The notes under the pieces were generated by a model. The model did no database searches. It worked only from the letters and a program-made list of their open reading frames with translations, and had not been told where the DNA came from. From positions 33,326 through 97,325 of the forward strand of contig CASTSB010000003.1 of NCBI GenBank assembly GCA_949451605.1: a stretch of 64,000 nucleotides of DNA, read 5' to 3'. Below, piece by piece: positions 34,832-64,000 of this stretch (its first letter is position 1; each line of letters opens with the position of its first letter). Source of the stretch: an uncultured Bacilli bacterium (GTDB lineage: Bacteria; Bacillota_I; Bacilli_A; RF39; UBA660). The position numbers and the translations under genes were made by a program.

Positions 34832-35503
34832 ATGAATAATAAAAAACTATTGATAATCATTTTATGTGTGAGTATATTCATACTTTCAATAGGACTTGCT
34901 ACTTTTTCATCTCATTTAAGTATAAAGTCAAGCACAACAGTATCACCAAATCCAGATAACTTTAAAGTAATAGCATCAGCATCAGAAACAGATACTAATG
35001 AAAATATATTGATTCCAAATATTGCAAGATATTCTAGCGCTCCTTCTGATACTCCACTTACTCAAACTGGAACTAATGCAATTATTAAAAATGGACAAAA
35101 TGAAATTAATATTGAAAATTTGTCTATATCATTTGATACCCCTGGTCAAATCGTTAATTATACATTTTATATACATAACATAGGAAGATATAGAACTTAT
35201 CTAAAGTTACATCAAGAGAGTACTAACCCAAAATGTACTGCCTTAGAAGGTACTAATCCAGAAATTATTAAAAAAATATGTCTAGAAGAAATGATTACAA
35301 GTATTTTTTACCGTAATAATGAAACTAAAAGCTGGCTTTGGCTTAATCATAGTGTTAAAAATGTATTTATAGAGCCAGGAGAAGTTATGAAGCTTATGAT
35401 ATCATTTACTTATAAATCAGAAAAAAATTTAAGAGCAGATGGACCATTTAATATTGATTATGGCAATATTGGAATAAATTTTTCTACTGCTATGTTTGAA
35501 TAA
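34832..35503 (+). CDS. small secreted protein with SipW-class-like N-terminus (TasA/camelysin-like candidate)
   Basis: ATG at 34832 follows AGAGGTG. MNNKKLLIIILCVSIFILSIGLATFSSHLSIKS, then a beta-rich domain of about 190 aa. Flanked by terminators on both sides. Confidence 0.45.
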   Translation: MNNKKLLIIILCVSIFILSIGLATFSSHLSIKSSTTVSPNPDNFKVIASASETDTNENILIPNIARYSSAPSDTPLTQTGTNAIIKNGQNEINIENLSISFDTPGQIVNYTFYIHNIGRYRTYLKLHQESTNPKCTALEGTNPEIIKKICLEEMITSIFYRNNETKSWLWLNHSVKNVFIEPGEVMKLMISFTYKSEKNLRADGPFNIDYGNIGINFSTAMFE

Positions 35504-35509
35504 AATTTA

Positions 35510-35537
35510 AAACTACTTATTAAGTAAGTAGTTTTTA
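35510..35537 (+). terminator. intrinsic terminator
   Basis: AAACTACTTA-TTAAG-TAAGTAGTTT (10 bp) followed by TT. Confidence 0.65.
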
Positions 35538-35568
35538 TATAGTTAAATTTGAAAAAAATTACAAAATA

Positions 35569-35577
35569 TGATATAAT
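35569..35577 (+). promoter_or_regulatory. extended -10 element TGATATAAT
   Basis: 26 nt upstream of the L,D-transpeptidase ATG at 35603. Confidence 0.45.
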
Positions 35578-35602
35578 AAGGCAACTATTAGGGGGATAAT
35601 AT

Positions 35603-36700
35603 ATGAAATTAAAAATAACTAAAAATCTAGTTCCTGTTTTATTAGTAGGAGGAATACTAGTATACGGAGCATCAAAGACTCTTAAGCCAAACAATAAAGA
35701 AAATAATAATATTGTTAATCAAATAGTTGAAGAAGAGATAACAAATGAAGAGAAAACAATTGAAAACATTGTTAATCAAGTAATAGAAGAATCTATAAAA
35801 GAAGAAAAACCAAAACAAGAATCAATTGTAGAAAAACCAATTAAAGAAGAAGCTAAAATAGAAGCAATAAATGGATTAGAAATAGAAACTAAGAAAGTAG
35901 TAACTGCAACAACTACTGTTAATATAAGAGAAGCTGCAACAACTGATAGTAAGAAACTTTCAACACTAGGTAGTGGAAATTCGCTAGATTTAATTTATGA
36001 AGCAAATGATGAATGGTATAAAGTAAAATATAATGAAGGTGAAGCTTATATCTCTAAAGCTTATTCCAAAGTAGAAGAGAAAAAAGAAATTCTTAATCCA
36101 TTAGAAAAAATAGTTTACTTTACAAAGGATTCAAACTTATTTGATAATTCTTCTAAAGAAGTAATCCAAAATATTCCAAAATTAGAAGCAGCAAAAGTAT
36201 ATAAAGATTTAGAAGATTATTATATAGCAGAGGTAAATGGCAACATTGGATTAATAAGTAAAAATGATACTGAAGATTTAAAAGATACATTTGTTATTGT
36301 GGATATTTCAGATCAAATGGCTTATCTTTATGAAAATAACGAATTATTAGTAGAAACAAAAGTAGTAACAGGTAAACCTTCAACTCCAACAACAAAAGGT
36401 TTACATGAAGTTTGGGATATCTCTGCAAATAGATATTTAAGAGGTGCAGACTACAAGGTGTATGTTGATGTAATGATGGCTTTCCATAATGGAGAAGGAT
36501 TACATGATGCAGAATATCATACTCATTATAATCAAGATGGAACTAAAGCATTTAGTCATGGTTGGAGAGGAAGTAATTCCTTTGGTGGAGACTTATATAA
36601 AACAGGTGGTTCCCACGGATGTGTAAATATGCCACATGATGCTGCTATGACAATGTATAATAAAATAAAACTTAAAGATAAAGTTTTAGTAAAAGAATAA
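35603..36700 (+). CDS. L,D-transpeptidase (YkuD family) with SH3b-like domain
   Basis: N-terminal TM, Glu/Lys-rich spacer, SH3b-like VNIREAATTDSKKLSTLGSGNSLDLIYEANDEWYKVKY, and YkuD catalytic box GGSHGCVNMP. Confidence 0.8.
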   Translation: MKLKITKNLVPVLLVGGILVYGASKTLKPNNKENNNIVNQIVEEEITNEEKTIENIVNQVIEESIKEEKPKQESIVEKPIKEEAKIEAINGLEIETKKVVTATTTVNIREAATTDSKKLSTLGSGNSLDLIYEANDEWYKVKYNEGEAYISKAYSKVEEKKEILNPLEKIVYFTKDSNLFDNSSKEVIQNIPKLEAAKVYKDLEDYYIAEVNGNIGLISKNDTEDLKDTFVIVDISDQMAYLYENNELLVETKVVTGKPSTPTTKGLHEVWDISANRYLRGADYKVYVDVMMAFHNGEGLHDAEYHTHYNQDGTKAFSHGWRGSNSFGGDLYKTGGSHGCVNMPHDAAMTMYNKIKLKDKVLVKE

Positions 36701-36706
36701 TAATAG

Positions 36707-36760
36707 AAATAAGCACTTGTGAACTATTTTGATTCACTTAAATGTTGCTTATTTTTTTAT
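36707..36760 (+). terminator. compound hairpin terminator
   Basis: Outer arms AAATAAGCA / TGCTTATTT enclose an inner GTGAA...TTCAC hairpin, followed by TTTTTT. Confidence 0.5.
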
Positions 36761-36778
36761 TTATTATTTTGTATTAAA

Positions 36779-36787
36779 TGATATAAT
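36779..36787 (+). promoter_or_regulatory. extended -10 element TGATATAAT
   Basis: 27 nt upstream of the lipid kinase ATG at 36814. Confidence 0.45.
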
Positions 36788-36813
36788 AAAGGCATAAAGG
36801 GAGATAGATTTAT

Positions 36814-37740
36814 ATGAAAAAGTGCATAATTATCATGAATCCTGCTAGTGGTAAAGGAAAAAATCAAGATAAAATCAAAAATATCTATGATATTTTAAGA
36901 AAATATGATTATAATGCGGAAATAAAATACACTAATAAAAAGCATCATGCTATAGAAATTGTTGAAAACTTAGATGATGATATAGATTTAGTTATTAGCG
37001 CAGGTGGAGACGGTACACTAAATGAAGTAGTAACTGGAAATTTAAAGAGAAAAACACCACTTACTCTTGCTAATCTCCCACTAGGAACTACAAATGATGT
37101 TGGTAATATGTATGGATTAAGAGGAAATATTTTAAATAACTTAGAAGAAATATTAAAAGGCAAAAAAAAGCAAATTGATGTTATAAAAATAAATAAAGTA
37201 CCATTTGTATATATTGCATGTCTTGGGGATTATATAGATATGGCTTATAATACGCCTAGAGATCTAAAAAAGAAATATGGAAAAATTGCTTATATTCTTT
37301 ATGGCTTAAAACAACTAAGAAATAAGATCCATAAATATGACATAAAATATAAAATAGATGGAAAAGAATATACAGGAAATTATTCTTTTATATTTATAAC
37401 TAATTCTTCAAGAGTAGCAGGAGTAGATGATATTTATTATGATGTAAAACTAAATGATAATAAATTTGAAGTAGCACTAGCAAATGTTAAAGATAAAAAA
37501 GACATGTTAAAAATGCTAGTTTTAATAAATACTAAGGATTTAAAAGATATTCCTGGAATTACATATTATCAAACTGATAACTTAGAAATAGAATTTCTTG
37601 ACTCTCCAAAAACTTCTTGGTGTATTGATGGAGAAGAATTAAAATCAAGTAAAATGAAATTTAAATTTGAAATTGATAAAAGAACAACGATGTTAATGCC
37701 AAGAGAAAATATAAAAAAATTATTTGAAAATGAAAAGTAA
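36814..37740 (+). CDS. diacylglycerol kinase family lipid kinase (DagK/YegS-like)
   Basis: IIMNPASGKGK...ISAGGDGTLNEVVTG (DAGK catalytic domain). Confidence 0.8.
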   Translation: MKKCIIIMNPASGKGKNQDKIKNIYDILRKYDYNAEIKYTNKKHHAIEIVENLDDDIDLVISAGGDGTLNEVVTGNLKRKTPLTLANLPLGTTNDVGNMYGLRGNILNNLEEILKGKKKQIDVIKINKVPFVYIACLGDYIDMAYNTPRDLKKKYGKIAYILYGLKQLRNKIHKYDIKYKIDGKEYTGNYSFIFITNSSRVAGVDDIYYDVKLNDNKFEVALANVKDKKDMLKMLVLINTKDLKDIPGITYYQTDNLEIEFLDSPKTSWCIDGEELKSSKMKFKFEIDKRTTMLMPRENIKKLFENEK

Positions 37741-37748
37741 GTGATAAA

Positions 37749-38549: not shown

Positions 38550-38566
38550 GTAATTTCTTTTTTTTA
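38532..38566 (+). terminator. intrinsic terminator
   Basis: AAGAAATTA-(10 nt)-TAATTTCTT followed by a T7 run. The stop codon lies in the loop. Confidence 0.55.
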
Positions 38567-43164: not shown

Positions 43165-43671
43165 ATGAAAGACATAGAAGATTTTTATAATAAAATAAAA
43201 AATATTAAATATGGATGGCTAGATAAAGAAAATAATATTCATGAAAATCTTAAAGAATATAAAGAAAAATTTATTATGCAAGATATTGATAACATAGAAA
43301 AGACTAATCATGCTGTTTGTTGGGAAATGTGTGAATTACAAAGAAGATTTTTTAATCAAAAAAATATTAATAATAAAACAATATTTGCTTACTTGAAAAA
43401 TAGTAGAAATAATGCTTGTCATACTTTCTCAATATTTGAACTTAATAATAAATGGTATTGGTTTGAAGCTTCTTGGCAAAATAAAAAGGGCATCCATGAA
43501 TTTAATAGTATTGAAGAAATTTTAGAATACTATAAAGATAATTTTATAGACTTTGCAAGAGAAGAGTATAATCGAGAAGACATGGAATTCTATGATTATA
43601 GCAAAGTAAATTCAGGAATTAATTGTACAGAATTTTATACCCATTGTCTATCAAGCTCAAAAATAAAATAA
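43165..43671 (+). CDS. hypothetical cytosolic protein, possible transglutaminase-like Cys-His-acid fold
   Basis: AVCWEMCELQRRFF ... ACHTFSIFELNNKWYWFEASW gives Cys, then His about 33 aa later, then Glu about 15 aa later, the spacing of transglutaminase-core proteins. Motif-level only. Confidence 0.35.
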   Translation: MKDIEDFYNKIKNIKYGWLDKENNIHENLKEYKEKFIMQDIDNIEKTNHAVCWEMCELQRRFFNQKNINNKTIFAYLKNSRNNACHTFSIFELNNKWYWFEASWQNKKGIHEFNSIEEILEYYKDNFIDFAREEYNREDMEFYDYSKVNSGINCTEFYTHCLSSSKIK

Positions 43672-43702
43672 CTAAGTATATAAACTACTTAGTTATTTTT
43701 TT
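43670..43702. terminator. bidirectional intrinsic terminator
   Basis: 10-bp stem TAACTAAGTA / TACTTAGTTA with a 7-nt loop. T-run downstream and A-run upstream, between convergent genes. Confidence 0.65.
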
Positions 43703-44190
43703 ATTAGAGATTTATTTTTATCATTATTTTTGTCATATCTATTAATAATTCTATTCATAATGCAACTTATATCATGTTCTGAAATAAAAGCACTTTTAGA
43801 ATTCAAATCTTTTAATTCATCAATCTTAATACCATAAAATCCAGTATTATAGTTTTCCTCATTAATAGTATTATTTGCTCGTTTTATCAATAATTCATCA
43901 TCTTTTAATTCAAAAGTAATTAATTCTTGTTCTTTATATTTTGTTTCATTATATATTACTTTATCTCCTAAGTATAGAGCTTTACCATATTTATAAATAT
44001 AGTCAACCCATTTTGCTCCACCAAGAATTAATTCTTCATCAGACAGTAAATCACCTTCACGTATATATCCATATATTTTTTTTGAATCAAAATAATCTAA
44101 ATCTAGTGTTTGTTTCTTCAAAGAATATGTCTTCTCCACTAATTTAATTGCATTATCAGTAAAAATAACTTTTTCTTTTAAAATTTCCAT
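43693..44190 (-). CDS. hypothetical protein
   Basis: ATG at 44190 lies 7 nt after GAGGGGTG on the minus strand (MEILKEKVIF...); the track start at 44205 overlaps that RBS. No motif recognised. Confidence 0.45.
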   Translation of the reverse strand: MEILKEKVIFTDNAIKLVEKTYSLKKQTLDLDYFDSKKIYGYIREGDLLSDEELILGGAKWVDYIYKYGKALYLGDKVIYNETKYKEQELITFELKDDELLIKRANNTINEENYNTGFYGIKIDELKDLNSKSAFISEHDISCIMNRIINRYDKNNDKNKSLIKK

Positions 44191-44432
44191 ATATTCACCC
44201 CTCATGATTGGATATTATATCATATTTTTATTATTTTTTCAATTTCTATTCGAGTACCGCAAAATATATTATGTATTTTAGAAAAAGAACTTTTATTTTT
44301 AATTTAACAAAAAATAATTAAAACATATTTAAAAAAAAACTTTGATGTGATAAAATTATCTTATAATAGCGATAAGAATAATCGGGGAAGGAATGTATGC
44401 TAGTTTTTTAACAGCAGACAAGTATTTTAATT

Positions 44433-45599
44433 ATGTCAAAAAGAAAGTACAATAATATATTAATCTTAGCATTATTTGCATTTTATATAATTTATTATAA
44501 AATTTTTATTTCTGCAAGTAAATTAGAGTATAGTGAGTTTATTAATGTAGCAGTTATTGCGATCATATCTTTTATTGCAGTATTATTGCTTGGATATCGA
44601 AAAGATAGAATAAATGATACAAAAAAATCAATTTTAAAAACTGTTTTAACAGACATTGTTATATTTTTAATAGTATCTTATGCTTTAGGAACAGTAACTG
44701 GTTTTACTACTAATGAAAATAATTATGAATTATCAATGATTATTAAAAATATATTTGCTCCTATTTGCTATATTGGAGTAATAGAACTATTTAGATATGT
44801 AACTGTTAATGCAAATTCTGATAAAAAAATTACAGTTTATTTAATAACAGCAGTTATTATTCTACTAGAGCTTGCAATGAATTTAAATGGTGTACTAATG
44901 TACAATTTTGAAACTACATTTAGAGCTATTTCTATGATTGTATTACCAATCATTATCAAAAATGCAACTTTAAGTTATTTAGCAATATATGGAGGTTTAA
45001 AATCTACTATATTGTACAGACTAATACTAGATCTATATGCATATATTTTACCAGCTATACCAAATTTAGGAGATTACATAACTTCTGTTATTGGTGTTCT
45101 TTTACCTACAATGGTTTATATTCATTCATCAAGAATTGTAGATAACGCAAATAGTATCGAGATTCTTGATGCAGAAGATGACAAAAAATCAAAGAAAAAA
45201 ATAAATATTAGTGATATTATTGTAACAATAATAATTATTCTTTTAGTAGGTTTAATTTCAGGCTACTTTAAATTTGCCATCATTGGAGTAGGATCTGGAT
45301 CAATGTCACCAGAAATAGAAAAAGGTGATGCAGTAGTTTATAAAAAAATTAAAAATAAAGAAGAATTAAAAGTAAACGATATATTAGTTTTCCAAAGTGG
45401 TAATAAAATAGTAATCCACAGATTAGTTGAAATTAAAAATAGTGGTGGAAAAACTTATTATATTACTAAAGGTGATGCTAATAATGGAAGAGATGGATTA
45501 AATCTAACTTTAGAAAATATCAAAGGAAAGGTAATGTTTAAGATAAAATATTTAGCTTATCCAAACTTATTCTTAAAAGATTTAGTAGATAAGGAGTAA
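44433..45599 (+). CDS. SipW-type (S26B, ER/archaeal-type) signal peptidase I fused to a ~260-aa polytopic N-terminal domain
   Basis: C-terminal boxes GSGSMSPEIEKGDAVV (Ser), IVIHRLVEI (His) and ITKGDANNGRDG (Asp), preceded by at least six hydrophobic segments. Confidence 0.7.
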   Translation: MSKRKYNNILILALFAFYIIYYKIFISASKLEYSEFINVAVIAIISFIAVLLLGYRKDRINDTKKSILKTVLTDIVIFLIVSYALGTVTGFTTNENNYELSMIIKNIFAPICYIGVIELFRYVTVNANSDKKITVYLITAVIILLELAMNLNGVLMYNFETTFRAISMIVLPIIIKNATLSYLAIYGGLKSTILYRLILDLYAYILPAIPNLGDYITSVIGVLLPTMVYIHSSRIVDNANSIEILDAEDDKKSKKKINISDIIVTIIIILLVGLISGYFKFAIIGVGSGSMSPEIEKGDAVVYKKIKNKEELKVNDILVFQSGNKIVIHRLVEIKNSGGKTYYITKGDANNGRDGLNLTLENIKGKVMFKIKYLAYPNLFLKDLVDKE

Positions 45600-45603
45600 A
45601 AAA

Positions 45604-46512
45604 ATGAAAAGGGAATTAAAAATAGGGGCATTGTCTTTACTTTTAATAGCACTTATTGGAATATCTATTTATTTATATTCCATAGGCTACTTAAATTTTG
45701 TAATTATAACAGCAACTTTTTCTGTAATTAACTTAATAATTTTAATTAATGTTATTATATCTACTAGATCAGAAGAAAGTCTTTATAATAGTAAAGTTAA
45801 ACAAATATTAAGAACATATGATGCTATTTTAGTAAAGAGTAATAATCATCCAAAGATTGATGAAAAAAATATAATTATAGTTGAGACATTTGAAGACTTA
45901 GTTGATGCACAAATGGAATTAAGGAAACCTATATATTATCAACAACAAACTGAATCATGTTCATTTGTTCTTTTAGATAATACTGAAGCCTGTGTATTTA
46001 TATTAAAGAAAAACCCATCTGTTGTCTGTCCTTTAGAAATAACTTTAAATGAAATAGAAATAAGGAATAATAGTGAATCAAAAAAAGAAGATTTACCAGA
46101 TGAGCTATTACAAAATATAGAGAAAACTACTATTGTTAGAGTAGGCAAAGGTCAATATTTAAAAGTTTCTCCTTTAAGAAAAAAGAAAGAGAAAAAAGAA
46201 GATTTATCTAATGAAACAATGGACTCAACTATTAAAAGAGAAGAAGAGATTCAACAACCAGCCATGAAAGAGGAAAATACTTCTCCAACAATTCCGACTG
46301 TACAAGAAAATATAGAAATTAAAAATCAACAACCAATAGTAGAAGTACCAGTAGAAAAAACAAATGACATACCAGTCGTACATGAAGAAGAGGTAACTGA
46401 TAATACATTATATAATGCAGAGCCACAAATAATTAAGAGTATGCCAACTGATATGCATTTAAATGAGCAAAAACAAGAATCAATAAAAGAAATTGAAGTC
46501 CTTGATTTATAA
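45604..46512 (+). CDS. hypothetical 2-TM membrane protein with Glu/Gln/Pro-rich tail, co-transcribed with the SipW-like gene
   Basis: AAGGAG RBS. Start is 4 nt after the upstream stop. Two N-terminal TMs, a globular region of about 130 aa, then a low-complexity acidic tail. Confidence 0.5.
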   Translation: MKRELKIGALSLLLIALIGISIYLYSIGYLNFVIITATFSVINLIILINVIISTRSEESLYNSKVKQILRTYDAILVKSNNHPKIDEKNIIIVETFEDLVDAQMELRKPIYYQQQTESCSFVLLDNTEACVFILKKNPSVVCPLEITLNEIEIRNNSESKKEDLPDELLQNIEKTTIVRVGKGQYLKVSPLRKKKEKKEDLSNETMDSTIKREEEIQQPAMKEENTSPTIPTVQENIEIKNQQPIVEVPVEKTNDIPVVHEEEVTDNTLYNAEPQIIKSMPTDMHLNEQKQESIKEIEVLDL

Positions 46513-46515
46513 CAA

Positions 46516-46538
46516 AAATAGTCTTATGACTATTTTTT
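46516..46538 (+). terminator. intrinsic terminator after the sipW-like operon
   Basis: AAATAGTC-TTAT-GACTATTT followed by TTT. Confidence 0.55.
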
Positions 46539-46618
46539 ATTTTTCTAAATATTGATAGAAACTATATAATTTGTTATACTAAATTAATAGAGTAAAGATG
46601 AATGAAAGGGATTTAATT

Positions 46619-49135
46619 ATGGATAAAAGTACACTAGATAAGCTAATTACAAATAAAAATTTATCTATCTTAATAGTGATTTTTGTTATGGCAATAAGCT
46701 TTGGTTATGCTGCTTTTAATTCTGTATTAAATATAACAGGAACGTATGCAGATGTGCGTATAAAACAAGATATTAGAATAACTGGCATTAGAACTAATAG
46801 TGCAACAAGCAGTGGTTCATCAACTTATGAAGATTATAATAAAAGTAGTATTAAAATAGGTACAATTCTACCAAATAGTAATTCCACTATAACTTATGAA
46901 GTTGATATTACCAATCTTGGAAATACCGAAATGGGAATATATCAAATAAATAATCTTCCATCTAATTTAGAATATTCGCTTTCTGATTATGAAGAAGGTA
47001 CAAAGCTTTGTGTAGATACAAAATGCTCTTTAGGAGTAACAAAAACTATAAAAATAACAATTAAATACAAAAATAATGGATTTAATTCTACTACAACAAC
47101 GTATAATTTAAAATTAGATTTTGATTTTCAAAGATTTTATAATGTTACCTATAATACAAAAACTGGTGCAAATAAATCAGATAGTGCAATAGGAAAAGGC
47201 ACATATGTTTTAGATTTTTCAAAAGAAGAAGCAAAGCCAAATAGTGTATCATCTATAAAAATGGCAGGTTCAAATATTTCGAATTATTCTTATAATTCTA
47301 GTACAGGAATTTTATCTATCCCTAATGTTACAGGAGATATTCAAATAACTGCTAGTTATAAAGTTGACTGTTTAAAAGCTTCTCCTCGAGGTTCTGGAGA
47401 TTATTATAGCAATTCATATCTAGATTTACCAATAAAAAGAAAAGAAATTGAAGCTGTAACTTTTAATAATACCAAATTAGTACCTGAAGGATTATCTAGC
47501 TACGATGTTTCAGAGGATGGAAATGGAAGTATACTTGCATATTATCTTGATGAAGACAACAATGGTCTATATGAATTATACATAGGACAAGATGGTGGAG
47601 TAAAAGCTAATAAAAACTCTGAATGGCTATTTGCATATTTTAAGAATCTTAAAAATATTAACTTAAAATATTTAGATACAAGCGAAGTTACTAATATGTA
47701 TTATCTTTTTCTCCAATGTGAAAGTCTAACAACTTTAGATGTAAGTACATTAATTACTGATAATGTCACTAATATGGTAGGGATGTTTTCTACTTGTAAA
47801 AACTTAACTTCATTAGATTTAAGTAATTTTAATACTATTAATGTAAATAATATGAGCGAAATGTTTTATCAAGATTATAAATTATCTAATCTTAATGTTT
47901 CTTATTTTAATACAGAAAAGGTAACTCAAATAAGATTAATGTTTTCATATTGTTCAAGTTTAACATCTCTAGATATAACAAATTTTATTACAAAAAAAGT
48001 TAATAATATGGATTCAACATTTAAAAATTGTAGTAGCCTAGAATCTTTAGATTTAAGCAATTTTACAACTGAGAAAGTTTCATTTTTAGGAAATTTATTT
48101 TCATATTGTGAAAAGCTGAATAATTTGAATATAAGAAATGATTTTGTAAAATCCAATATAACAAATATTAAAGCAATGTTTAATAGCTGTAAAAGTTTAA
48201 CTACTCTTGATCTATCTCAATGGGATACAAGTAATGTAACAGATATGAGTAATTTATTTAATCATTGTGATAAACTTACCTCATTAAACTTTTATAATAT
48301 TAATACAAATAAAGTAACAAATATGAGTTCCTTTTTTAGTTATTGCAGTGCTTTACCAGAAAGTAATTTAGTTGGAATAGTAAGTAAATTTAATACAATT
48401 AATGTTACTGATATGTCTTATATGTTTCATTGGTGTACTCAATTAAACAATCTAGATTTATCACATTTCAATACTGAAAAGGTAACAACTATGTCTTATA
48501 TGTTTTTTGTCTGTTCTAACTTATCCACTTTAAATATTAGTAGTTTTAACACAAGTAATGTTACAAGTATGGCAGGAATGTTTTATAATTTTAGAAAAAT
48601 GGACACAATTAATCTTTCCCACTTTGATACATCTAAAGTAACATCGATGTATGATATGTTTGCCAATTCTAGTTACAAATCTTTAGATATTAGTAACTTT
48701 GATTTAAGTAGTTTAAAAAGTATGGGAGAAATGTTTGCTTACAATCGTTTATTAACTAGTATAAATATTAATGGAATAGATACTTCAAATGTTACAAATA
48801 TGAAAAGATTATTTCGAGAGTGCGAAAGTTTAGAAAATATAAACATAAGACATTTTAAAACTGCAAACGTTACAGATATGAGTGAAATGTTTTATAAATG
48901 TACTAATTTAAAAACCATCAATATTGCAAGTACAACTTTTGAATTTAAAAAAGAGTATGATGAAGCAACACAAACTACTAATTTTTTAGTAACTGTTACT
49001 AATATGTTTGCAGAGTGTCCAAATCTTCAAAAGTTATATATTTATGATATATTACAAATGGCTATTTTAAATCAAATATATCCAGGATTTACAAGTTTAC
49101 CTTTTGAACCTATCCAAGATGGAGAACCAAGTTAA
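46619..49135 (+). CDS. secreted BspA/DUF285-type leucine-rich-repeat protein with TasA-like SipW-class N-terminus
   Basis: N-terminus ...ILIVIFVMAISFGYAAFNSVLNITG. About 16-17 repeats of 25 aa (LDxSxFNTxxVTxMxxMFxxCxxL). An alternative ATG at 46598 is in frame. Confidence 0.7.
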   Translation: MDKSTLDKLITNKNLSILIVIFVMAISFGYAAFNSVLNITGTYADVRIKQDIRITGIRTNSATSSGSSTYEDYNKSSIKIGTILPNSNSTITYEVDITNLGNTEMGIYQINNLPSNLEYSLSDYEEGTKLCVDTKCSLGVTKTIKITIKYKNNGFNSTTTTYNLKLDFDFQRFYNVTYNTKTGANKSDSAIGKGTYVLDFSKEEAKPNSVSSIKMAGSNISNYSYNSSTGILSIPNVTGDIQITASYKVDCLKASPRGSGDYYSNSYLDLPIKRKEIEAVTFNNTKLVPEGLSSYDVSEDGNGSILAYYLDEDNNGLYELYIGQDGGVKANKNSEWLFAYFKNLKNINLKYLDTSEVTNMYYLFLQCESLTTLDVSTLITDNVTNMVGMFSTCKNLTSLDLSNFNTINVNNMSEMFYQDYKLSNLNVSYFNTEKVTQIRLMFSYCSSLTSLDITNFITKKVNNMDSTFKNCSSLESLDLSNFTTEKVSFLGNLFSYCEKLNNLNIRNDFVKSNITNIKAMFNSCKSLTTLDLSQWDTSNVTDMSNLFNHCDKLTSLNFYNINTNKVTNMSSFFSYCSALPESNLVGIVSKFNTINVTDMSYMFHWCTQLNNLDLSHFNTEKVTTMSYMFFVCSNLSTLNISSFNTSNVTSMAGMFYNFRKMDTINLSHFDTSKVTSMYDMFANSSYKSLDISNFDLSSLKSMGEMFAYNRLLTSININGIDTSNVTNMKRLFRECESLENINIRHFKTANVTDMSEMFYKCTNLKTINIASTTFEFKKEYDEATQTTNFLVTVTNMFAECPNLQKLYIYDILQMAILNQIYPGFTSLPFEPIQDGEPS
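47645..49040 (+). repeat. ~75-nt periodic coding repeat array (DUF285/BspA-type LRR)
   Basis: Recurring ...(T/N)NM(S/x)xMF..C..L..L(D/N)(L/I)S.F(N/D)T..V... units, counted as 16-17 by eye. Confidence 0.7.
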
Positions 49136-49158
49136 GAGCTTAGTGGCTCTTTTTTTTG
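49134..49158 (+). terminator. intrinsic terminator
   Basis: AAGAGC-TTAGTG-GCTCTT followed by a T7 run. Confidence 0.55.
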
Positions 49159-49167
49159 TTTTTCATA

Positions 49168-49196
49168 TTGACAAAAGAATTATCATAGATTAATAT
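49168..49196 (+). promoter_or_regulatory. sigma-A promoter of the arsR-family/P-type ATPase operon
   Basis: TTGACA (49168-49173), 17-nt spacer, TAATAT (49191-49196). Confidence 0.6.
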
Positions 49197-49219
49197 GAAC
49201 ATATGAGCAATCATTCATA
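49194..49219 (+). promoter_or_regulatory. candidate ArsR/SmtB operator (imperfect inverted repeat)
   Basis: TATGAA-N14-TTCATA overlaps the -10 box and the transcription start region. Confidence 0.4.
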
Positions 49220-49233
49220 TAAGGAGGACAAAT

Positions 49234-49530
49234 ATGAAACAACACAGTAAAGAATTATTATATGGGCTAAGTGAGTTTTATAAAATATTTGGAGATCCAA
49301 CAAGATTAAGAATTCTAGATTTACTTTTAAATAAGCCATTATGCGTAAATGAGATAAGTGAAATATTAGATGTATCTCAATCTGCTATTTCTCATCAATT
49401 AAAATACCTTAGATCTTCTAATCTTGTTAAAGCAGAGAAGACTGGAAAAAATGTTTATTATTCTATAAGTGATGAGCATATTAAAATAATATTAAAATAT
49501 GGAATTGAACATATTAAGGAGGTTATGTAA
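49234..49530 (+). CDS. ArsR/SmtB family metalloregulator (alpha5-site type)
   Basis: FKIFGDPTRLRILDLL...CVNEISEILDVSQSAISHQLKYLR (wHTH). C-terminal DEH-x10-H-x2-E aligns with the CzrA/SmtB alpha5 ligands. Confidence 0.85.
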   Translation: MKQHSKELLYGLSEFYKIFGDPTRLRILDLLLNKPLCVNEISEILDVSQSAISHQLKYLRSSNLVKAEKTGKNVYYSISDEHIKIILKYGIEHIKEVM

Positions 49531-55102: not shown

Positions 55103-57949
55103 ATGAAGAGAAAAAGTAAATTGAAATATTTTAGTTTATTATTAGTAGTAATATTTATAGGTATTGGTTATGCATTTTTATCTACTAACTTAGAAATAAA
55201 TGGTATTTCTATTATGAAGAGAAGTGTTTGGGACTTACACTTTGAAAATATAGTGGATGATTATGAAAAAGCAGTTATTGATATTCCAGCTTCTATTAGT
55301 AGGGACAGGTTATCAGTAAATTTTGAAGTAACACTAAATAACCCAGGAGATGAATACTACTTTTATGTTGATGTAGTAAATGATGGAACAATCGATGTAA
55401 TGTTAAATAACTACTTGTTCTCGGGACTATCTACAGAACAAGAAAAACTAATTAGTACAACTCTAACTTATAATGATGGAGTAGCGGTTAATAAATATGA
55501 TTTACTAAAAGAGAATTCTTTTGACACTTTAAAGGTAAGTGTTAAGTTTAGAGAAGATATAGAAGTAAGTGATCTACCAACTACTAAGAGTGACTTTAAT
55601 TTATCACTTGAAGTAAACTTTGATCAAGCAGATTCAAATGCTAAAGAAAGAGAACATATAGCGGATGTCACACCTCCTAGAATTAAGTTTATTAAAGTAA
55701 ATGACAATTCAGGAAATGATGAGTGGAGTAAAGATATAAGGCTTCTAGTAAAGATCGTAGATGAATCAAAAATAAAAGAAGCCAAATATTGTATCACAAC
55801 ACCAGATAATGAGTGCGAACCAACAGAAGTCCCAGAAGAGTTACAAAACACATCATTTTACTTTACATTTCCAGAATCAGATACAGAACAAAGACTATGT
55901 GTAAAGGCAACAGATACAAACGATAACTCAAAAACAACCTGTACAACAGAAAGTTATCTAGTAGATGGAGAAGATCCAGTAATAAAAAATGTTAATCTAA
56001 CAAAAGAAAACAATTCAATTACAGTAGAAGTAGATGCAGAAGATAAACAATCAGGAATCTATATGTATTATTATTCAAAGGATTCAGGAGAAACATATAT
56101 ACCAAGCATCTATCCAAACTATACCTTTACTGGATTAGATAATGATGACTATTTAATAACAATGTATACAGAAGATGTAGCTGGAAACAAGTCTGCAGTA
56201 ACTGCCAAAAACTCAACAGTAAGAAGTGGTAATTTCTGTAAAAGTAATGGTCTAACTAATCTAAGTGACTGTCTATTAGCTCAAGAGACAAGAGATGCCA
56301 ATATTGTTTCTGCAAAATCAAAAATAGAGGCAAAAGAAACTCCTAACTTTAATGATGTTAGTCCTAAAATAACATATGGCGAAAAAGAAATGCCAAAAGT
56401 AAGCGTTTATAAAGCTTCTACATCCCAATCATTTTATTTAAGTGATGGCTCTAGCTATTCTTATAATTATTATTATGTAGGTACAGATTATCAACTTAAT
56501 ACCTCAACTGGACAATTTACTTTAAAAAATACAAAGCAAATTAAAGATTTTGGTGACTTAGACAATCAAAATAATACTTACTATATGTGCGGATCACAAT
56601 ATAGTAGTTCTTGTAGCACAATGTTTAAAATAATATCAATAGACTTTTTAGAAGAAACTAATACTGATTATAGTTTTTATACTACCAAAGTTTTAAAGTT
56701 TAATATTACAAAATATGATATAACATATAAAGAATTAAAATATGATTCAAAAGAGACTGGAATGTATTCAATAGAAGATGATTTAGGAACAAGCTATTAT
56801 TACCGTGGAGCAGTGGAAGGAAACATCGTTAAATTTGGTGACTTCTACTGGAAAATAACACGAATAAATGGTGATGGAACAATAAGAATGATATTCTATG
56901 GAACATCTCCAACTACAGATAGTCAAGTAAGTGTGCAATATTATACTCCTAATAATAGTTTTTATAGATATGATCCAACCTATATGGGAATTATGTTTAA
57001 TAACGAAGATTTTGGTGAAGAGTTAAAACCTACTGTATCAACATATACAGGGTTTGAAGACAAATCTACTACATCCTATGTATATTCTAAATCTTATACA
57101 TATAATAGGGAAAATTCAACATTTAGCTTAGACTTAACAGAGGGAAATTATATTAAAGGTATATGGAAAGATACTTACGAAGAAATACTTAATAATGGAT
57201 ATATCTACACATGTGCTACTACTTCAACAACAGCTTCTGCAAATACTTGTCGAAAAATAAAAAAAGTCACTAGATATGAATATAATGAAAAACAAAAGCA
57301 ACATAGAATGTATTATACAGATTATCTTACTTCATCAACATCTTACGAGAATGCTGTAAAAAATGTTAAAAAGTCACAGTTATTAATAAAACTAGATGAA
57401 TGGTTTGAAACAAACATAAAAACTAAAACCGATTCAAATTCTAATAGTTTGCTAGAATATTTATCTGATGGAATTTTCTGTAATGATAGAAGTTTTTATT
57501 CAGGAAATGGATATTATAGCTATGGTTCAATGATTTATTATAACGGTTATGGAAGGCTTAAAAATAATATGCCAAGTCTACTTTGTGTAAATCAAAATGA
57601 TAGATTTACCGAGTCTGATACAACTAATGGAAATGGTGCTTTAGAAAATAGAGTTGGTCTAATAACAGCTGATGAAGTAGAATTATCTGGAGTAAACAAC
57701 AATACTTCTTATAAAAACAATCATTATTTCTTAAAATGGGGAAGTAGATCATTTTGGACAATTACTCCATACTATGATAATGGCGACAATGAATATGTAT
57801 ATAAAGCATATTCTTCTGGAGGTATTTCCAGTGAGCATATAGGAAATAGCGGTCATATTCGCCCAGTAATAAACTTAAAAGCAAATACAAAGATTGTAAG
57901 TGGAGAAGGAACAACAGATTCACCATTTGAAATAACCTTAGGAAATTAG
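55103..57949 (+). CDS. large secreted protein: SipW-class N-terminus + conserved N-domain + Ig-like modules + shared C-terminal module
   Basis: ...LLLVVIFIGIGYAFLSTNLEING. N-domain VWDLHFENI / PGDEYYFYVDVVNDGTIDVML. C-module YYYRGAVEGNIVKFGDFYWKITRINGDGTIRMIFYG ... IRPVINLK ... SGEGTTDSPFEI. Confidence 0.6.
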   Translation: MKRKSKLKYFSLLLVVIFIGIGYAFLSTNLEINGISIMKRSVWDLHFENIVDDYEKAVIDIPASISRDRLSVNFEVTLNNPGDEYYFYVDVVNDGTIDVMLNNYLFSGLSTEQEKLISTTLTYNDGVAVNKYDLLKENSFDTLKVSVKFREDIEVSDLPTTKSDFNLSLEVNFDQADSNAKEREHIADVTPPRIKFIKVNDNSGNDEWSKDIRLLVKIVDESKIKEAKYCITTPDNECEPTEVPEELQNTSFYFTFPESDTEQRLCVKATDTNDNSKTTCTTESYLVDGEDPVIKNVNLTKENNSITVEVDAEDKQSGIYMYYYSKDSGETYIPSIYPNYTFTGLDNDDYLITMYTEDVAGNKSAVTAKNSTVRSGNFCKSNGLTNLSDCLLAQETRDANIVSAKSKIEAKETPNFNDVSPKITYGEKEMPKVSVYKASTSQSFYLSDGSSYSYNYYYVGTDYQLNTSTGQFTLKNTKQIKDFGDLDNQNNTYYMCGSQYSSSCSTMFKIISIDFLEETNTDYSFYTTKVLKFNITKYDITYKELKYDSKETGMYSIEDDLGTSYYYRGAVEGNIVKFGDFYWKITRINGDGTIRMIFYGTSPTTDSQVSVQYYTPNNSFYRYDPTYMGIMFNNEDFGEELKPTVSTYTGFEDKSTTSYVYSKSYTYNRENSTFSLDLTEGNYIKGIWKDTYEEILNNGYIYTCATTSTTASANTCRKIKKVTRYEYNEKQKQHRMYYTDYLTSSTSYENAVKNVKKSQLLIKLDEWFETNIKTKTDSNSNSLLEYLSDGIFCNDRSFYSGNGYYSYGSMIYYNGYGRLKNNMPSLLCVNQNDRFTESDTTNGNGALENRVGLITADEVELSGVNNNTSYKNNHYFLKWGSRSFWTITPYYDNGDNEYVYKAYSSGGISSEHIGNSGHIRPVINLKANTKIVSGEGTTDSPFEITLGN

Positions 57950-60137: not shown

Positions 60138-61598
60138 ATGTTAAGATCTGAAAGAAAAGTAAAAAATATTATATTAGTAACGCTATTTTCGTTCTTCTTT
60201 ATAGGTGTAGGCTATGCATTAATTTCATCTAACCTAAGTATTAGAGGTACACTTGAAGTTAATAAGGCTACATGGGATATTCATCTTGCTAATGTTGTAA
60301 TGAATGAGAACAATACTGTAAGTGCAACACCTACTTTAGTGAATAATGATACAGGAATAAATTATTCTCTAAAATTAGCTGCTCCTGGAGATTTCTATTC
60401 ATTTACCGTAGACGTTGTAAATAGTGGAACTTTAAATGCTATGTTGACAGATATAAATGCTGCAGGATTAACTGCAGATCAAGCTAATGTTATTAATTAC
60501 ACAGTTACATATGAAAATGGAATTTTACCACAAGAAAAAGATTCACTTCAAAAAGATTCTTCAAAAACTTTAGTAGTGACAGTAAGTTATAAAGAGGATA
60601 TCACCGCTGATCAATTATTAGATGCAGATATTCCACTAAACTTAAGATTAGAGATATCATATGCCCAAGATGATGGGACAAGTAAAAAAGTACCAGAGAC
60701 TTTAAACGATGTTATGGCAAGAAATGCAGTTTTAGATGATCAAGCAAGTGAATTTGTTACTGCCCAGACAGGAATCGACTTTAGTGCTCATTATTCAGAA
60801 ACAAATGGAAATGGTATATATGAATATTCCAATAGTAAAAATCAAGAATATCCAATTTATTATTACAGAGGAAATATTCAAAATAATAATGTTATCTTTA
60901 ATAATTTCTGTTGGAAAATAGTAAGAACAACAGATACTGGAGGAGTAAAGTTATTATACAATGGTCTTTTATCTTCTGATAATAAATGTGACAATACAGG
61001 AAATGCAACAAATTTAAGCTCTTATTCCCAATTTATGCCAAACAATGAATTAAGGTACATAGGATATACTTATGAAGTTGATGGTGTTGAGAAAGATTCT
61101 TTAGTCAAAAATCTGATTGAAACATGGTATGAAAATAATATGAGTACTGTATCAGATAAATTAGAAGATACTATTTACTGTAATAGTCCAACAGGTGGAA
61201 ATAAAAATATTGCTAATAAAGATACTTTATTTACATGTAATAACAAAAATGAAAGTTATACAGTAAGTAATAATTTGGGTAATCAGAAATTAAAATATAA
61301 AATTGGATTATTAACAGTAAAAGAAAGTGTTGCAGCAGGTGGAAGATATATGCCGGGAACACCACAACCTGAAACTTATTTATCTAATGCAACGGCATAT
61401 TGGACTATGTCTCCTCGTGATAATGAACCAGCTACAGAAGGAAATATGTCAACAATACATTATATAGAAGCAAATGGTTCTGGTGGGGCAGGATCTAGTA
61501 ATAATAGTCATAAGCTTAGACCAGTAATCTCACTTAAAAATGGCCTTAAATTTACAAAAGGTACAGGAGAAATAAATAATCCATATTTTATTGGATAA
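60138..61598 (+). CDS. secreted protein: SipW-class N-terminus + conserved N-domain + shared C-terminal module
   Basis: ...LFSFFFIGVGYALISSNLSIRG. TWDIHLANV / PGDFYSFTVDVVNSGTLNAML. YYYRGNIQNNNVIFNNFCWKIVRTTDTGGVKLLYNG ... LRPVISLK ... KGTGEINNPYFIG. Confidence 0.6.
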   Translation: MLRSERKVKNIILVTLFSFFFIGVGYALISSNLSIRGTLEVNKATWDIHLANVVMNENNTVSATPTLVNNDTGINYSLKLAAPGDFYSFTVDVVNSGTLNAMLTDINAAGLTADQANVINYTVTYENGILPQEKDSLQKDSSKTLVVTVSYKEDITADQLLDADIPLNLRLEISYAQDDGTSKKVPETLNDVMARNAVLDDQASEFVTAQTGIDFSAHYSETNGNGIYEYSNSKNQEYPIYYYRGNIQNNNVIFNNFCWKIVRTTDTGGVKLLYNGLLSSDNKCDNTGNATNLSSYSQFMPNNELRYIGYTYEVDGVEKDSLVKNLIETWYENNMSTVSDKLEDTIYCNSPTGGNKNIANKDTLFTCNNKNESYTVSNNLGNQKLKYKIGLLTVKESVAAGGRYMPGTPQPETYLSNATAYWTMSPRDNEPATEGNMSTIHYIEANGSGGAGSSNNSHKLRPVISLKNGLKFTKGTGEINNPYFIG

Positions 61599-61622
61599 TA
61601 TAATAATGAAAGGAACAGTAAC

Positions 61623-62927
61623 ATGAAAATAGGTAATGTAGAAATAAAGAAAAATTATATTATAGTCTTGAGCGTAATTATACTAGTAGTTTCACTAGCG
61701 TTAGGTTATAGCCTTTTATATAGTGATCTAAACTATCAAGCAAATGTTACTGTTAAAAACTATAAATGTAATCAGGAAAATCTTTATGAAAGATTAACTT
61801 GTTTATCAACTTATGATAATACTCCAAGTAAAAATGTTAAAAGTTATTCTGGAATAGATTATAATGATATATCATCAGATACTAATGGCAAAGGATTATA
61901 TACTCTATCAGAAACTTTGGATACAGCAAATCCAATTCGTTATTTTAGAGGAAACGTAAAAAATAATAATCTCAAATTCGCATCTAGTTGTTGGAAAATA
62001 ATTAGAACTACTTCAACAGGTGGGATTAAATTAATATATAATGGAAAGCCAAATGATAAAGGAATTTGCGAAGAAAATGGAGTAAGTATTGGAAGCTACG
62101 CTTTTAATGATGAAAATCTATCAGTTTCAGATACTTCTTATATGTATGGAAAAACATATGAAATAAAAGAAAAAATTATGGAAAATACTGAAATTGTTTA
62201 TGGTAATACTGTAAATTGGAATAATGAGACAAACACTTATACAATTTCTGATGAAGTAATTAGTTCATCTTGGTCAAATGATCATAATAATTTAAAGAAT
62301 AAGTATACATGCTTTAATAATGAAACGACTTGTGAAAAAGTAAATTATATTTCTGAATCTAATGATCCTGCTAAAGCTATTTATATTGAATTAGCATTAG
62401 GAGAAACAAAAGAAAATATTTATGAAAATATTTCAACAAATGAAAATTCATCATCTATCAAAACTATACTTGATAAATGGTATGAAGATAATATAAAGGC
62501 ATTTGAAAATAATTTAGAAGATACCTTATATTGTAATGATAGAACATCGCTTAATGGAAATGCAAAAAAAGAAATGATATTTGCTTGTCCAAATAAAGCA
62601 GATTCTTTCAGTACAAAAGAAGAAAATGGAAATGCAAAATTAACTTATCCAATTGCTTTATTAACTAAAGAAGAAATTATATTATCAGGCTTAAATACAG
62701 AAAAGGAAAATACTAATTATCTTACAACTAATTCAAACATTTTAACTATGACACCAGCAAAGATAAATATAAATGAATCAAAAATGGTTATTATATCAAG
62801 TATGAATAAAATTGATTCATTAAAATCTACTGAAAAAGCTGAAATAAAACCTGTTATATCATTAAAAAAAGATACTTTAATAGTAAGTGGTACAGGAACA
62901 TTAGATGATCCTTATATAATTGGATAG
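61623..62927 (+). CDS. secreted protein: SipW-class N-terminus directly joined to the shared C-terminal module
   Basis: ...LVVSLALGYSLLYSDLNYQ. RYFRGNVKNNNLKFASSCWKIIRTTSTGGIKLIYNG ... IKPVISLK ... SGTGTLDDPYIIG. Lacks the ~150-aa N-domain. Confidence 0.6.
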   Translation: MKIGNVEIKKNYIIVLSVIILVVSLALGYSLLYSDLNYQANVTVKNYKCNQENLYERLTCLSTYDNTPSKNVKSYSGIDYNDISSDTNGKGLYTLSETLDTANPIRYFRGNVKNNNLKFASSCWKIIRTTSTGGIKLIYNGKPNDKGICEENGVSIGSYAFNDENLSVSDTSYMYGKTYEIKEKIMENTEIVYGNTVNWNNETNTYTISDEVISSSWSNDHNNLKNKYTCFNNETTCEKVNYISESNDPAKAIYIELALGETKENIYENISTNENSSSIKTILDKWYEDNIKAFENNLEDTLYCNDRTSLNGNAKKEMIFACPNKADSFSTKEENGNAKLTYPIALLTKEEIILSGLNTEKENTNYLTTNSNILTMTPAKININESKMVIISSMNKIDSLKSTEKAEIKPVISLKKDTLIVSGTGTLDDPYIIG

Positions 62928-62948
62928 TGAAGGGAAGAGTGAAATTAT

Positions 62949-64000
62949 ATGATTCATAGAAAAAGAAATAGAAAAATAAAAGTTCCAAAATATCTTTATA
63001 TAGTTTCGCTTGGTCTTTTATTATTCTTAAGTGTTGGATATTCCATGATTAATTCAACTTTAGGTATTGAAGGAAATGTAGTAGCATCAAAAAATAATTG
63101 GGATATTCATTTTGATAATATTACTTATGCAGATGATAGTATAAAACCAGAAGTCTCTCCATCAATAGTAAATGAAACTGAATTAAATTATAATGTTAGT
63201 TTAGAAAGACCTGGTGATAAACTTTTATTTACATTTGATATTGTAAATAATGGTAGTCTAGATGGAATTATAGATAAAATAGATTTTACGTCATTAACTG
63301 ATGATCAAAAGAAATATATTAATTATGAAATAACTTATGAAAATGGTAAACAAATCCAATTAAAAGATATTTTAAGAAAAGAAGAAATAAAAAAAGTTAA
63401 AGTTTTACTAGAATATAAGGATAAGCGTTCTAATGATGAATATCCTGAAGAAAATATCGAATTACCTTTAAAGATATTTATAAATTATATTCAAGCTAAA
63501 GAAGAAGTTTATAAATTAGATATTAATCACAACAATATAGTAAATTCTTATTCTGTTATTAATACAAAAGAAGCATTAAAAATACCTGATGAAATAGCAG
63601 AATCTGATAATGCTATTATATGCAATAATAACTCAATACCAACCATTAGTGATACTAATGAATTAATTATTACTAATATAAAACAAAATACTTCTTGTAG
63701 TATTGTAAAAACACTAAAAGATGCCATAGATCTTATAGAAAATGAAAATAATTATATTACTCTTATAAAAAGTCAAACAATTAATGAAGCTATTACAATT
63801 CCAAAAGATAAAAGTGTGATAATTAATCTTTCTAATAAAGAAATAAACTTTAATGGCAATGAAACTTTAATAACAAATGAAGGAAATCTAATAATAAATG
63901 CTTCATCATCTTCTATTGTTAATACAAGTGCTGCTTTTATAAATAATAAAGAAGAAGCTAAACTTACTATTAATAATGGTATTTATAATAAGTTAAATAG
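62949..64000 (+). CDS. secreted protein (3' end outside window): SipW-class N-terminus + conserved N-domain + beta-helix-like region
   Basis: Not in the supplied ORF track because it has no stop within the window. Read by hand from ATG 62949: MIHRKRNRKIKVPKYLYIVSLGLLLFLSVGYSMINSTLGIEG...NWDIHFDNI...PGDKLLFTFDIVNNGSLDGII...YEITYENG..., then Asn/Ile/Thr-rich short repeats (VIINLSNKEINFNGNETLITNEGNLIINASSSSIVN). No stop through nt 63998. Confidence 0.6.
   Translation, partial: MIHRKRNRKIKVPKYLYIVSLGLLLFLSVGYSMINSTLGIEGNVVASKNNWDIHFDNITYADDSIKPEVSPSIVNETELNYNVSLERPGDKLLFTFDIVNNGSLDGIIDKIDFTSLTDDQKKYINYEITYENGKQIQLKDILRKEEIKKVKVLLEYKDKRSNDEYPEENIELPLKIFINYIQAKEEVYKLDINHNNIVNSYSVINTKEALKIPDEIAESDNAIICNNNSIPTISDTNELIITNIKQNTSCSIVKTLKDAIDLIENENNYITLIKSQTINEAITIPKDKSVIINLSNKEINFNGNETLITNEGNLIINASSSSIVNTSAAFINNKEEAKLTINNGIYNKLN

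Follow-up and report, generated by a model that had tools for sequence, protein, structure and literature searches.

We found six secreted proteins with a common N-terminal region on a 64,000-nt stretch of DNA from an uncultured Bacilli bacterium (assembly GCA_949451605.1, contig CASTSB010000003.1, positions 33,326 to 97,325, as a whole referred to as the window), and these proteins belong to a very large family whose closest characterised relative, according to profile comparisons, is AbpX, which belongs to the TasA superfamily and forms fibres by donor-strand complementation. Members of the family share a conserved motif at the end of the signal sequence, are homologous to AbpX and are linked to genes for a multi-pass signal peptidase I and a DUF5305 protein. 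By analogy with AbpX, cleavage at a G-Y-A site, polymerisation and the display of C-terminal heads would be expected, and we consider it fairly likely that the six proteins are substrates of the peptidase encoded at 44433, with the DUF5305 protein probably assisting, and that they assemble by donor-strand complementation. Probably, they either make up surface fibres or plug into them, with a variety of adhesin-like heads on display. The proteins (p) are named after the first nucleotide of their genes, and the features concerned are the following:

34832..35503 (+): p34832, 223 aa, a putative stand-alone, divergent AbpX-like subunit with signal, donor-strand-like segment, insertion of ~50 aa and beta-sandwich core
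44433..45599 (+): signal peptidase I, 388 aa, with a multi-pass N-region of ~260 aa, followed by an archaeal/endoplasmic reticulum (ER)-type catalytic domain at aa ~261-382 (GSGSMSP...HR...KGDANN)
45604..46512 (+): putative peptidase accessory protein of the DUF5305 family, 302 aa, with two predicted N-terminal transmembrane (TM) helices, a cytoplasmic domain and an acidic tail of low complexity
46598..49135 (+): p46598, 845 aa, with signal, strand, AbpX-like N-domain (~nt 46652-47131) and a PARCEL/DUF285 leucine-rich-repeat (LRR) head
49134..49161 (+): putative terminator-like hairpin with T-run (consensus match), closing the operon of the peptidase, DUF5305 and p46598 genes
55103..57949 (+): p55103, 948 aa, with signal, strand, N-domain (nt 55103-55672), immunoglobulin (Ig)-like middle part and C-terminal RPVINLK module
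60138..61598 (+): p60138, 486 aa, with signal (aa 1-27), donor-strand-like segment (aa 28-41), beta-sandwich core to aa ~185 and C-terminal RPVISLK module
61623..62927 (+): p61623, 434 aa, with signal and donor-strand-like segment joined directly to an RPVISLK-type head, without beta-sandwich core (donor-only)
62949..64000 (+): p62949, cut by the window end, with signal, strand, N-domain (nt 62949-63518) and the start of a repetitive head

A shared N-terminal region in a very large family

A hidden Markov model (HMM) of the N-terminal ~190 residues (profile A1), built from eight sequences, the three clear copies in the window and five relatives from databases, was searched unfiltered (--max) against all stop-to-stop open reading frames (ORFs) of the window with 50 aa or more. 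It matched exactly the six ORFs for which the initial annotation had claimed a shared N-terminal region, all of them present where that annotation had placed them, and the next best ORF reached E 0.15. The whole profile was matched by p62949 (E 2.5e-79), p60138 (E 8.8e-79) and p55103 (E 1.7e-73), and positions 11-180 by p46598 (E 8.2e-12); the matches of p34832 (E 4.2e-5, positions 8-47) and p61623 (E 4.2e-4, positions 5-47) comprised signal and motif only. BLASTP confirmed a domain of ~180 aa common to p55103, p60138 and p62949 with E 1e-21 to 4e-32 (p60138 against p55103, 2.5e-32, and against p62949, 3.7e-32). The sequence blocks quoted earlier for this N-domain, WDIHF.N, PGD...F..DVVN.GT and TY.NG, are present in the alignment, and the N-domains of three window proteins are acidic (pI 4.2-4.7).

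The initial annotation had assigned the N-domain to p55103, p60138 and p62949, which both methods bear out, but five of the six proteins carry it: p46598 by HMM, and p34832 by profile-profile comparison, in which its homologues (A8) aligned with the small subunits of related loci (A3) over 144 columns (hhalign 98%, E 1.8e-13), including a PGQ..Y.FY.HN.G core motif. Only p61623 has no N-domain; it carries signal and strand and shares its C-terminal module, the remaining ~380 residues, with p60138 (E 5e-23) and p55103 (E 2e-29).

When 1.84 billion representative proteins (50% identity) were searched exhaustively with HMMER, 6,580 family members were returned at E<=1e-3 and 1,671 at E<=1e-30. Among the best 150 of the 6,580 matches the domain is N-terminal, in proteins of 185 to 1,553 aa. 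Word-indexed homologue searches are insensitive for this family and yielded 5, 4 and 6 matches only. A scan of genomes, one per species, located 71 family loci, more than 20 of them in the metagenome-assembled genome (MAG) JAFRAK01 and more than 10 in JAZRPV01, and the hosts are uncultured gut Bacilli and Saccharibacteria. With a GC content of only ~25% in the window, which enriches I, L, N, K and S, signal peptides of an AT-rich genome might resemble each other by chance or composition; this explanation is effectively refuted by the restriction of HMM matches to six ORFs, by the size of the family and its conserved motif, and by a reciprocal synteny with the peptidase gene.

Homology to AbpX

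The AbpX link was established with a profile of full-length AbpX and three orthologues (A4). Against this profile, the small subunits (A3) aligned with 96.8% probability in hhalign (E 2.7e-10) over 159 columns that begin at the cleavage site and reach the C-terminus, and the window-centred A1 with 78% (E 1.8e-5) over 160 columns in the same register, Y-A on Y-A. The family motif I-G-Y-A|x-L-S-x-x-L-x-I-x-G is thereby aligned gap-free with L-T-Y-A|Q-W-S-E-T-L-S-L-S-A of AbpX, and the G-Y-A| site with T-Y-A|QWSETLSLSATI. The predicted signal peptide of AbpX comprises its first 54 residues; when produced recombinantly as mature protein from Q55 onwards, AbpX forms fibrils, and residues W2-I12 were identified as the donor strand by cryo-electron microscopy (bioRxiv 10.64898/2026.01.04.697558); the protein uses N-terminal donor-strand complementation to polymerise (bioRxiv 10.64898/2026.01.04.697558; PDB 9rhp, 9sj2).

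Judged by this clear profile-profile homology, the N-domain is a member of the TasA superfamily in the broad sense. The TasA-type domain proposed in the initial annotation thus holds at superfamily level, via AbpX, but not for TasA itself: a direct hhalign comparison was limited to 25 columns at the PGD motif, with 6.7%. The two models suggested for recognising such proteins likewise failed. Peptidase_M73 (PF12389) had no match at E<=0.1 among the six proteins and was found below threshold in relatives only (3 of 32 small subunits, best E 0.0026, still the most frequent Pfam match among small subunits), and TIGR04088 matched neither the full proteins at E<=0.1 nor their N-terminal fragments (46-59 aa) at E<=10. 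The strongest Peptidase_M73 score that we saw, 20.2 bits with a cutoff of 22.5, belongs to P0006, a metagenomic protein of 480 aa with three matched N-domain stretches in tandem.

A conserved motif at the predicted cleavage site

Signal peptidase I requires small residues at positions -3 and -1 of its cleavage site. In a motif logo of 329 of the 385 non-redundant members, position -3 is G (72%), A (15%) or V (9%), position -2 is Y (90%) or F (9%) and position -1 is A (85%) or S (14%). The predicted cut site, with a median position of 29, is compatible with cleavage by signal peptidase I, because the residues at -3 and -1 are small. Conservation within the family is highest in the 14 residues that follow (L 82% or I 12% at +2; T, A or S at +4; L 89% at +6; I 89% at +8; G 96% at +10; I or V 89% at +14), and their alternating hydrophobic residues make this stretch compatible with an amphipathic beta-strand. 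In the window, the predicted cleavage sites are SIGLA(23)|TFSSHLSIKS in p34832 (from sequence and analogy), SFGYA(38)|AFNSVLNITG in p46598, GIGYA(24)|FLSTNLEING in p55103, GVGYA(27)|LISSNLSIRG in p60138, ALGYS(30)|LLYSDLNYQA in p61623 and SVGYS(32)|MINSTLGIEG in p62949. As read from the sequences, none of the six N-termini contains a lipobox Cys or a G|F...E site, and we therefore reject lipoproteins and type IV prepilins.

The hydrophobic helix might also stay in the membrane as an uncleaved signal anchor, with the N-domain as a membrane-proximal stalk, while the peptidase processes only the small subunits or other proteins. When the signal was included, AlphaFold2 (AF2) predicted one continuous helix from residue 3 to 29 that runs through G-Y-A-L-I-S. 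As claimed in the initial annotation, a C-terminal anchor is also absent: each of the five complete proteins has a single, N-terminal hydrophobic segment and hence no C-terminal TM anchor, and none of the five contains LPXTG (p62949 is truncated, and its C-terminus lies beyond 64000). In addition, the peptidase operon does not include four of the six genes. Nevertheless, we consider uncleaved anchors unlikely: residues -3 and -1 are small in more than 95% of the members, the next 14 residues are the most conserved ones and show a strand-like rather than helix-like periodicity, the motif is aligned with the predicted cleavage site and the donor strand of AbpX, and head-bearing members are encoded directly downstream of peptidase and DUF5305 genes in many loci.

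A dedicated peptidase with a DUF5305 protein

The peptidase encoded at 44433 scores 94.1 bits with TIGR02228 (cutoff 51.85) and E 6.6e-6 with Peptidase_S26. A SipW-like peptidase had been proposed as partner of the six proteins; the linkage of the family to a TIGR02228-type peptidase supports the partnership, but with 66.3 bits the SipW equivalog NF046067 remains below its cutoff of 190, and by these scores the enzyme is SipW-type but not SipW. Its catalytic domain comprises the last ~125 residues only, and the first ~260 residues contain seven hydrophobic segments at a Kyte-Doolittle threshold of >=1.6, plus weaker ones. The peptidase adjacent to abpX in Pyrodictium abyssi (380 aa) is of the same size and layout. 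Between the two catalytic domains, the identity is 29% (E 8e-15, hhalign 99.2%), and they alone align: hhalign detected no homology between the N-terminal multi-TM regions of the two enzymes. In the multi-TM region of the window peptidase (44433-45210, aa 1-260), which has no matching Pfam family, Y83, G86, G90, N106, E118, R121, K132, P172, Y195 and P210 are invariant across 16 aligned homologues; this region might serve as a platform for substrate docking or assembly. AbpX-associated peptidases of bacteria and archaea have ten TM helices and often occur with DUF5305, minor subunits and tip proteins (bioRxiv 10.64898/2026.01.04.697558).

The neighbouring protein encoded at 45604 matches Pfam DUF5305 (PF17231) with E 7.2e-12 and 45.6 bits (cutoff 29) at profile positions 120-212 of 217, and the extracellular beta-sandwich part of this family seems to be absent from its sequence. 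DUF5305 proteins are described as accessories of the peptidases in AbpX and Tafi loci (bioRxiv 10.64898/2026.01.04.697558; PMC11821415, PMC12337348). In the window, the genes at 44433-45599, 45604-46512 and 46598-49135 are contiguous: the DUF5305 gene starts 4 bp past the end of the peptidase gene and p46598 85 bp past the DUF5305 gene, which makes p46598 the third gene of the peptidase operon. The hairpin at its end is the sole terminator-like site within 43600-49400; a promoter scan was uninformative (51 sites, 50.5 expected).

The linkage is reciprocal. Starting from the family, 15 of the 71 loci have a full-length peptidase homologue within 10 kb, and 14 of these 15 also have DUF5305. Starting from the peptidase (query: an 11-sequence subset of the peptidase alignment), we found full-length homologues in 60 other genomes; 58 of the 60 loci also encode a family member, as a rule within 200 bp of the peptidase gene, and DUF5305, positioned after the peptidase, is likewise present in 58 of 60. 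The initial annotation had named a distribution independent of such peptidase genes as evidence against its proposal; the distribution found here is the opposite. Usually, one to five small subunits in tandem (~180 aa, with no more than signal, strand and core) come first, followed by the peptidase, DUF5305 and larger head-bearing members. In Clostridium sp. CAG:417 (L073), five small subunits are encoded upstream and five family members downstream. Many paralogues per genome are scattered among housekeeping genes, and a homologue of p34832 is also located there, outside any peptidase operon.

Six loci of Candidatus Saccharibacteria / Nanosyncoccaceae (L106, L112, L115, L116, L117 and L118), one of them on a 735-kb contig, encode full-length multi-TM peptidase homologues with 30-34% identity and adjacent family members. 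Their strand motif, G-F-A|A-Y-(A/S)-(Q/E)-T-L-x-I-x-G, keeps the aromatic residue at +2 as in AbpX. Two further loci contain second peptidase paralogues (L027:11296-12462 and L062:8352-9497), in which the multi-TM region is kept and the GS.SM.P serine box and the VHR histidine are gone (GVENSTIS / GVEKSTIS and IIATV / VIEKI at the catalytic sites). These paralogues, which from their sequences may be inactive, scaffold-like peptidase homologues, adjoin 226-aa family members with a long Pro/Asp/Lys-rich linker between strand region and core.

Heads and subunit architectures

Variable C-terminal heads had been predicted from the window proteins, and they are found across the family. The recognisable C-terminal domains of 100 longer members are diverse and include DUF6273, DUF285/PARCEL, BspA-type LRR, ALK/LTK glycine-rich, ricin lectin and Chlamydia PMP repeats, among others, and most of the 100 lack any Pfam match. 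The head of p46598 matches DUF285 (E 6.5e-77) and the PARCEL repeat TIGR02167 (E 2e-109), and p55103 has a weak OmpL47-type/Cadherin-like match. A C-terminal RPVI(S/N)LK ... G(T/E)G ... PY.I. module is common to p60138 (60700-61598), p61623 (61750-62927) and p55103 (56700-57949) and has no Pfam match at E<=0.1 in these three proteins. DUF6273, the consensus of which ends in YW....G.RP.I, was matched in 7 of the 100 family members, and the window module is, by sequence resemblance, probably a divergent DUF6273-like head.

In the related loci, 223 ORFs combine strand and core, 9 carry the strand only with a head, the same architecture as p61623, and 21 carry the core only. The last number was obtained before the removal of duplicates from overlapping loci, fragments and linker-type proteins, after which ~8 distinct proteins remain (148-187 aa as called, with an ordinary-looking signal peptide and no strand motif). 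These three architectures would be expected for a donor-strand polymer that consists of body subunits and end pieces of two types. Seven core-only proteins of 148-167 aa (L015:4838-5332, L024:6579-7025, L025:4002-4466, L032:4861-5364, L064:5685-6143, L079:6371-6835 and L100:11982-12437) are encoded without G-Y-A/strand motif a few kb from the peptidase and are candidates for acceptor-only end subunits.

Proposed mechanism of assembly

According to the mechanism that we favour, each precursor would be exported via Sec, and the dedicated peptidase, with DUF5305, would cut after (G/A/V)-(Y/F)-(A/S) at about residue 23-38. The cut would expose a new N-terminus with the amphipathic strand x-L-(S/T)-x-x-L-x-I-x-G, which could then enter the open groove in the beta-sandwich core of a neighbouring subunit, as in the donor-strand complementation of AbpX and TasA. 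The outcome would be non-covalent fibres or chains bearing PARCEL-LRR, DUF6273-like and other heads. Subunits with strand and core (p34832, p46598, p55103, p60138 and p62949) could build into or onto such fibres, with their variable heads pointing outward. As p61623 has the strand and no core, it could only plug a free groove as a cap.

The predicted structure of the N-domain is consistent with such an assembly. For mature p60138 (aa 28-190, 38-sequence alignment), AF2 produced a confident beta-sandwich of nine strands, with a predicted local distance difference test (pLDDT) of 88.8 and a predicted template modelling (pTM) score of 0.82. The first 10 residues of this model are disordered (pLDDT ~40), which parallels the disordered N-terminal strand reported for AlphaFold3 models of the AbpX monomer (bioRxiv 10.64898/2026.01.04.697558).

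Several observations weigh against donor-strand assembly of these proteins. Foldseek searches of the PDB with the signal-helix model and the mature-domain model returned nothing at E<=1e-3. The top match of the mature domain is the TasA fibre 8AUR, which is weak (E 0.013, template modelling (TM) score 0.36, root mean square deviation 10) and closely followed by adaptin ears, chaperone-usher pilins, envelope proteins of white spot syndrome virus and generic Ig-like sandwiches; the AbpX entries 9rhp and 9sj2 were not among the 50 matches listed, and their presence in the library was not checked. In a PDB profile search with A1 (8 sequences), AbpX was the best match (E 0.006), and this match was lost with the deeper alignments A2 and A3. 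As the profile match is unreliable alone, the AbpX link rests on the hhalign comparison with the AbpX alignment. The signature of the AbpX clade, an aromatic residue at +2 and an acidic one at +4, is mostly absent from the family, which has Leu at +2 and Thr, Ala or Ser at +4. Within the window, F occurs at +2 only in p34832 and p46598, and an acidic +4 in none. Since these are the residues of the Ca2+-dependent interface of AbpX, a calcium dependence in this family is doubtful. The position of four of the six genes outside the peptidase operon also counts here, as does the lack of an identified cell anchor for the proteins in the window. Finally, a small subunit gene beside the peptidase is missing both from the window and from L072, its nearest relative, in which the peptidase is 58% identical. 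If this genome has a main fibre subunit, it must therefore be p34832 or be encoded elsewhere.

The proteins could also be cleaved and secreted without polymerising. The N-domain would then be a generic Ig-/CARDB-like module for wall or glycan binding or a spacer, and its N-terminal segment would fold back in cis. The low-scoring Foldseek matches to generic beta-sandwiches are in line with this, as are weak DUF11, CARDB and HYDIN-like Ig matches in Pfam scans of the proteins and their relatives. The monomer of TasA, moreover, is self-complementing. We nevertheless judge this explanation improbable: next to the peptidase, single-domain subunits of ~180 aa are found in one to five tandem copies, some proteins are donor-only and others acceptor-only, the homology to the polymer-forming AbpX extends over the whole domain, and the N-terminal strand is unfolded in the monomer model.

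A bolder form of the donor-strand mechanism is conceivable, although we hold it only tentatively. A single universal donor strand might act as a non-covalent plug, by which dozens of paralogous adhesin- or enzyme-like heads per genome, once processed by one multi-pass peptidase, attach to AbpX-like fibres or to one another. This would amount to a sortase-independent, modular surface display in genome-reduced gut Bacilli and Saccharibacteria, with donor-only heads and acceptor-only small subunits as its two kinds of end caps.

Comparison with known systems

The system of this family most closely resembles that of AbpX of Pyrodictium abyssi. Both share a signal ending in x-Y-A, then an amphipathic N-terminal strand (in the same register, free of gaps), a beta-sandwich core with a PG....F....N.GT motif and a C-terminal ..Q motif, and an acidic mature domain. 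In both, an adjoining TIGR02228 peptidase of ~380 aa has a long N-region, multi-pass here by hydropathy and ten-TM in AbpX loci (bioRxiv 10.64898/2026.01.04.697558), a DUF5305 accessory gene is present, and loci contain several minor subunits and larger tip-like proteins. Unlike AbpX, however, to which it has no BLAST-level similarity, the family mostly has Leu and Thr/Ala/Ser in place of the aromatic/acidic Ca2+ interface, most members carry large and diverse C-terminal heads, many paralogues are scattered through each genome of uncultured gut Bacilli and Saccharibacteria, and the window showed no anchor partner of the SLH or LPXTG type.

TasA and camelysin (CalY) with SipW of Bacillus are similar in the ER/archaeal-type signal peptidase encoded beside its substrates, in the cleavage context G-x-aromatic-A| and in the PGD....F.F.N.G(S/T) motif. 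The TasA fibre forms by N-terminal donor-strand exchange. In contrast to TasA and camelysin, the family fails the thresholds of Peptidase_M73 and TIGR04088 and aligns with TasA over 25 columns only; SipW has a short N-terminal anchor instead of the multi-pass region of ~260 aa, no TapA homologue is present here, and TasA has no head domains.

The Tat-fimbriae of haloarchaea (TafA/TafE, TafD, TafG) also combine a dedicated signal peptidase, a DUF5305 protein and donor-strand filament subunits; TafD was required experimentally for the processing of TafA, and the DUF5305 protein TafG is encoded in the cluster (PMC11821415, PMC12337348). Their subunits, however, are exported via the twin-arginine translocation (Tat) pathway, and TafD differs by its four TM helices and an additional C-terminal domain. 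The chaperone-usher pili of Gram-negative bacteria, of which the pilin domains of PapK, PapA and PapG are among the weak Foldseek matches, offer an analogy of mechanism only: body subunits have strand and groove and terminal subunits lack one of them, whereas no chaperone, usher or outer membrane is involved here.

Implications

The kind of system, TasA-superfamily fibres with a dedicated signal peptidase, is already known, although for the AbpX clade only since recently. Our literature searches found no description of the present clade, which is distinguished by its divergence beyond the reach of the Pfam and NCBIfam models searched, an altered donor strand, heavy expansion of paralogues per genome, many different heads and its uncultured hosts among gut Bacilli and Saccharibacteria. 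If the proposed mechanism is true, a very large family without matching Pfam or NCBIfam model in these searches would be assigned a mechanism, as subunits and cargo of TasA-superfamily fibres. Chaperone-free donor-strand fibres would then extend beyond biofilm matrix proteins to the general display of adhesin-like heads, and the multi-pass peptidase with DUF5305 would be the single processing step on which all family members depend. Although the organisms are uncultured, this hypothesis is testable in heterologous hosts.

Genomic context of the window

Judged from the translations, the window carries chromosomal genes that are usual for a low-GC Bacillota organism with a cell wall, among them genes for rhamnose synthesis, glycosyltransferases, an LCP protein, a PASTA-domain protein and an L,D-transpeptidase. 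In public data, the window genes have their closest relatives in MAGs labelled Bacilli, Erysipelotrichaceae, Tenericutes or Firmicutes, and also in Clostridium sp. CAG:417; many of these MAGs originate from ruminant gut samples. A further secreted protein of 1,263 aa (8937-12728), with an ordinary-looking signal peptide and three tandem repeats of ~90 aa with D.EDGDLTSK, had no match with the A1 HMM and stands outside the family studied here. Between the rmlA-like and rmlB-like genes, a 479-aa ORF (17790-19229) reads, in translation, as a fusion of RmlC (dTDP-4-dehydrorhamnose 3,5-epimerase) and RmlD (reductase).

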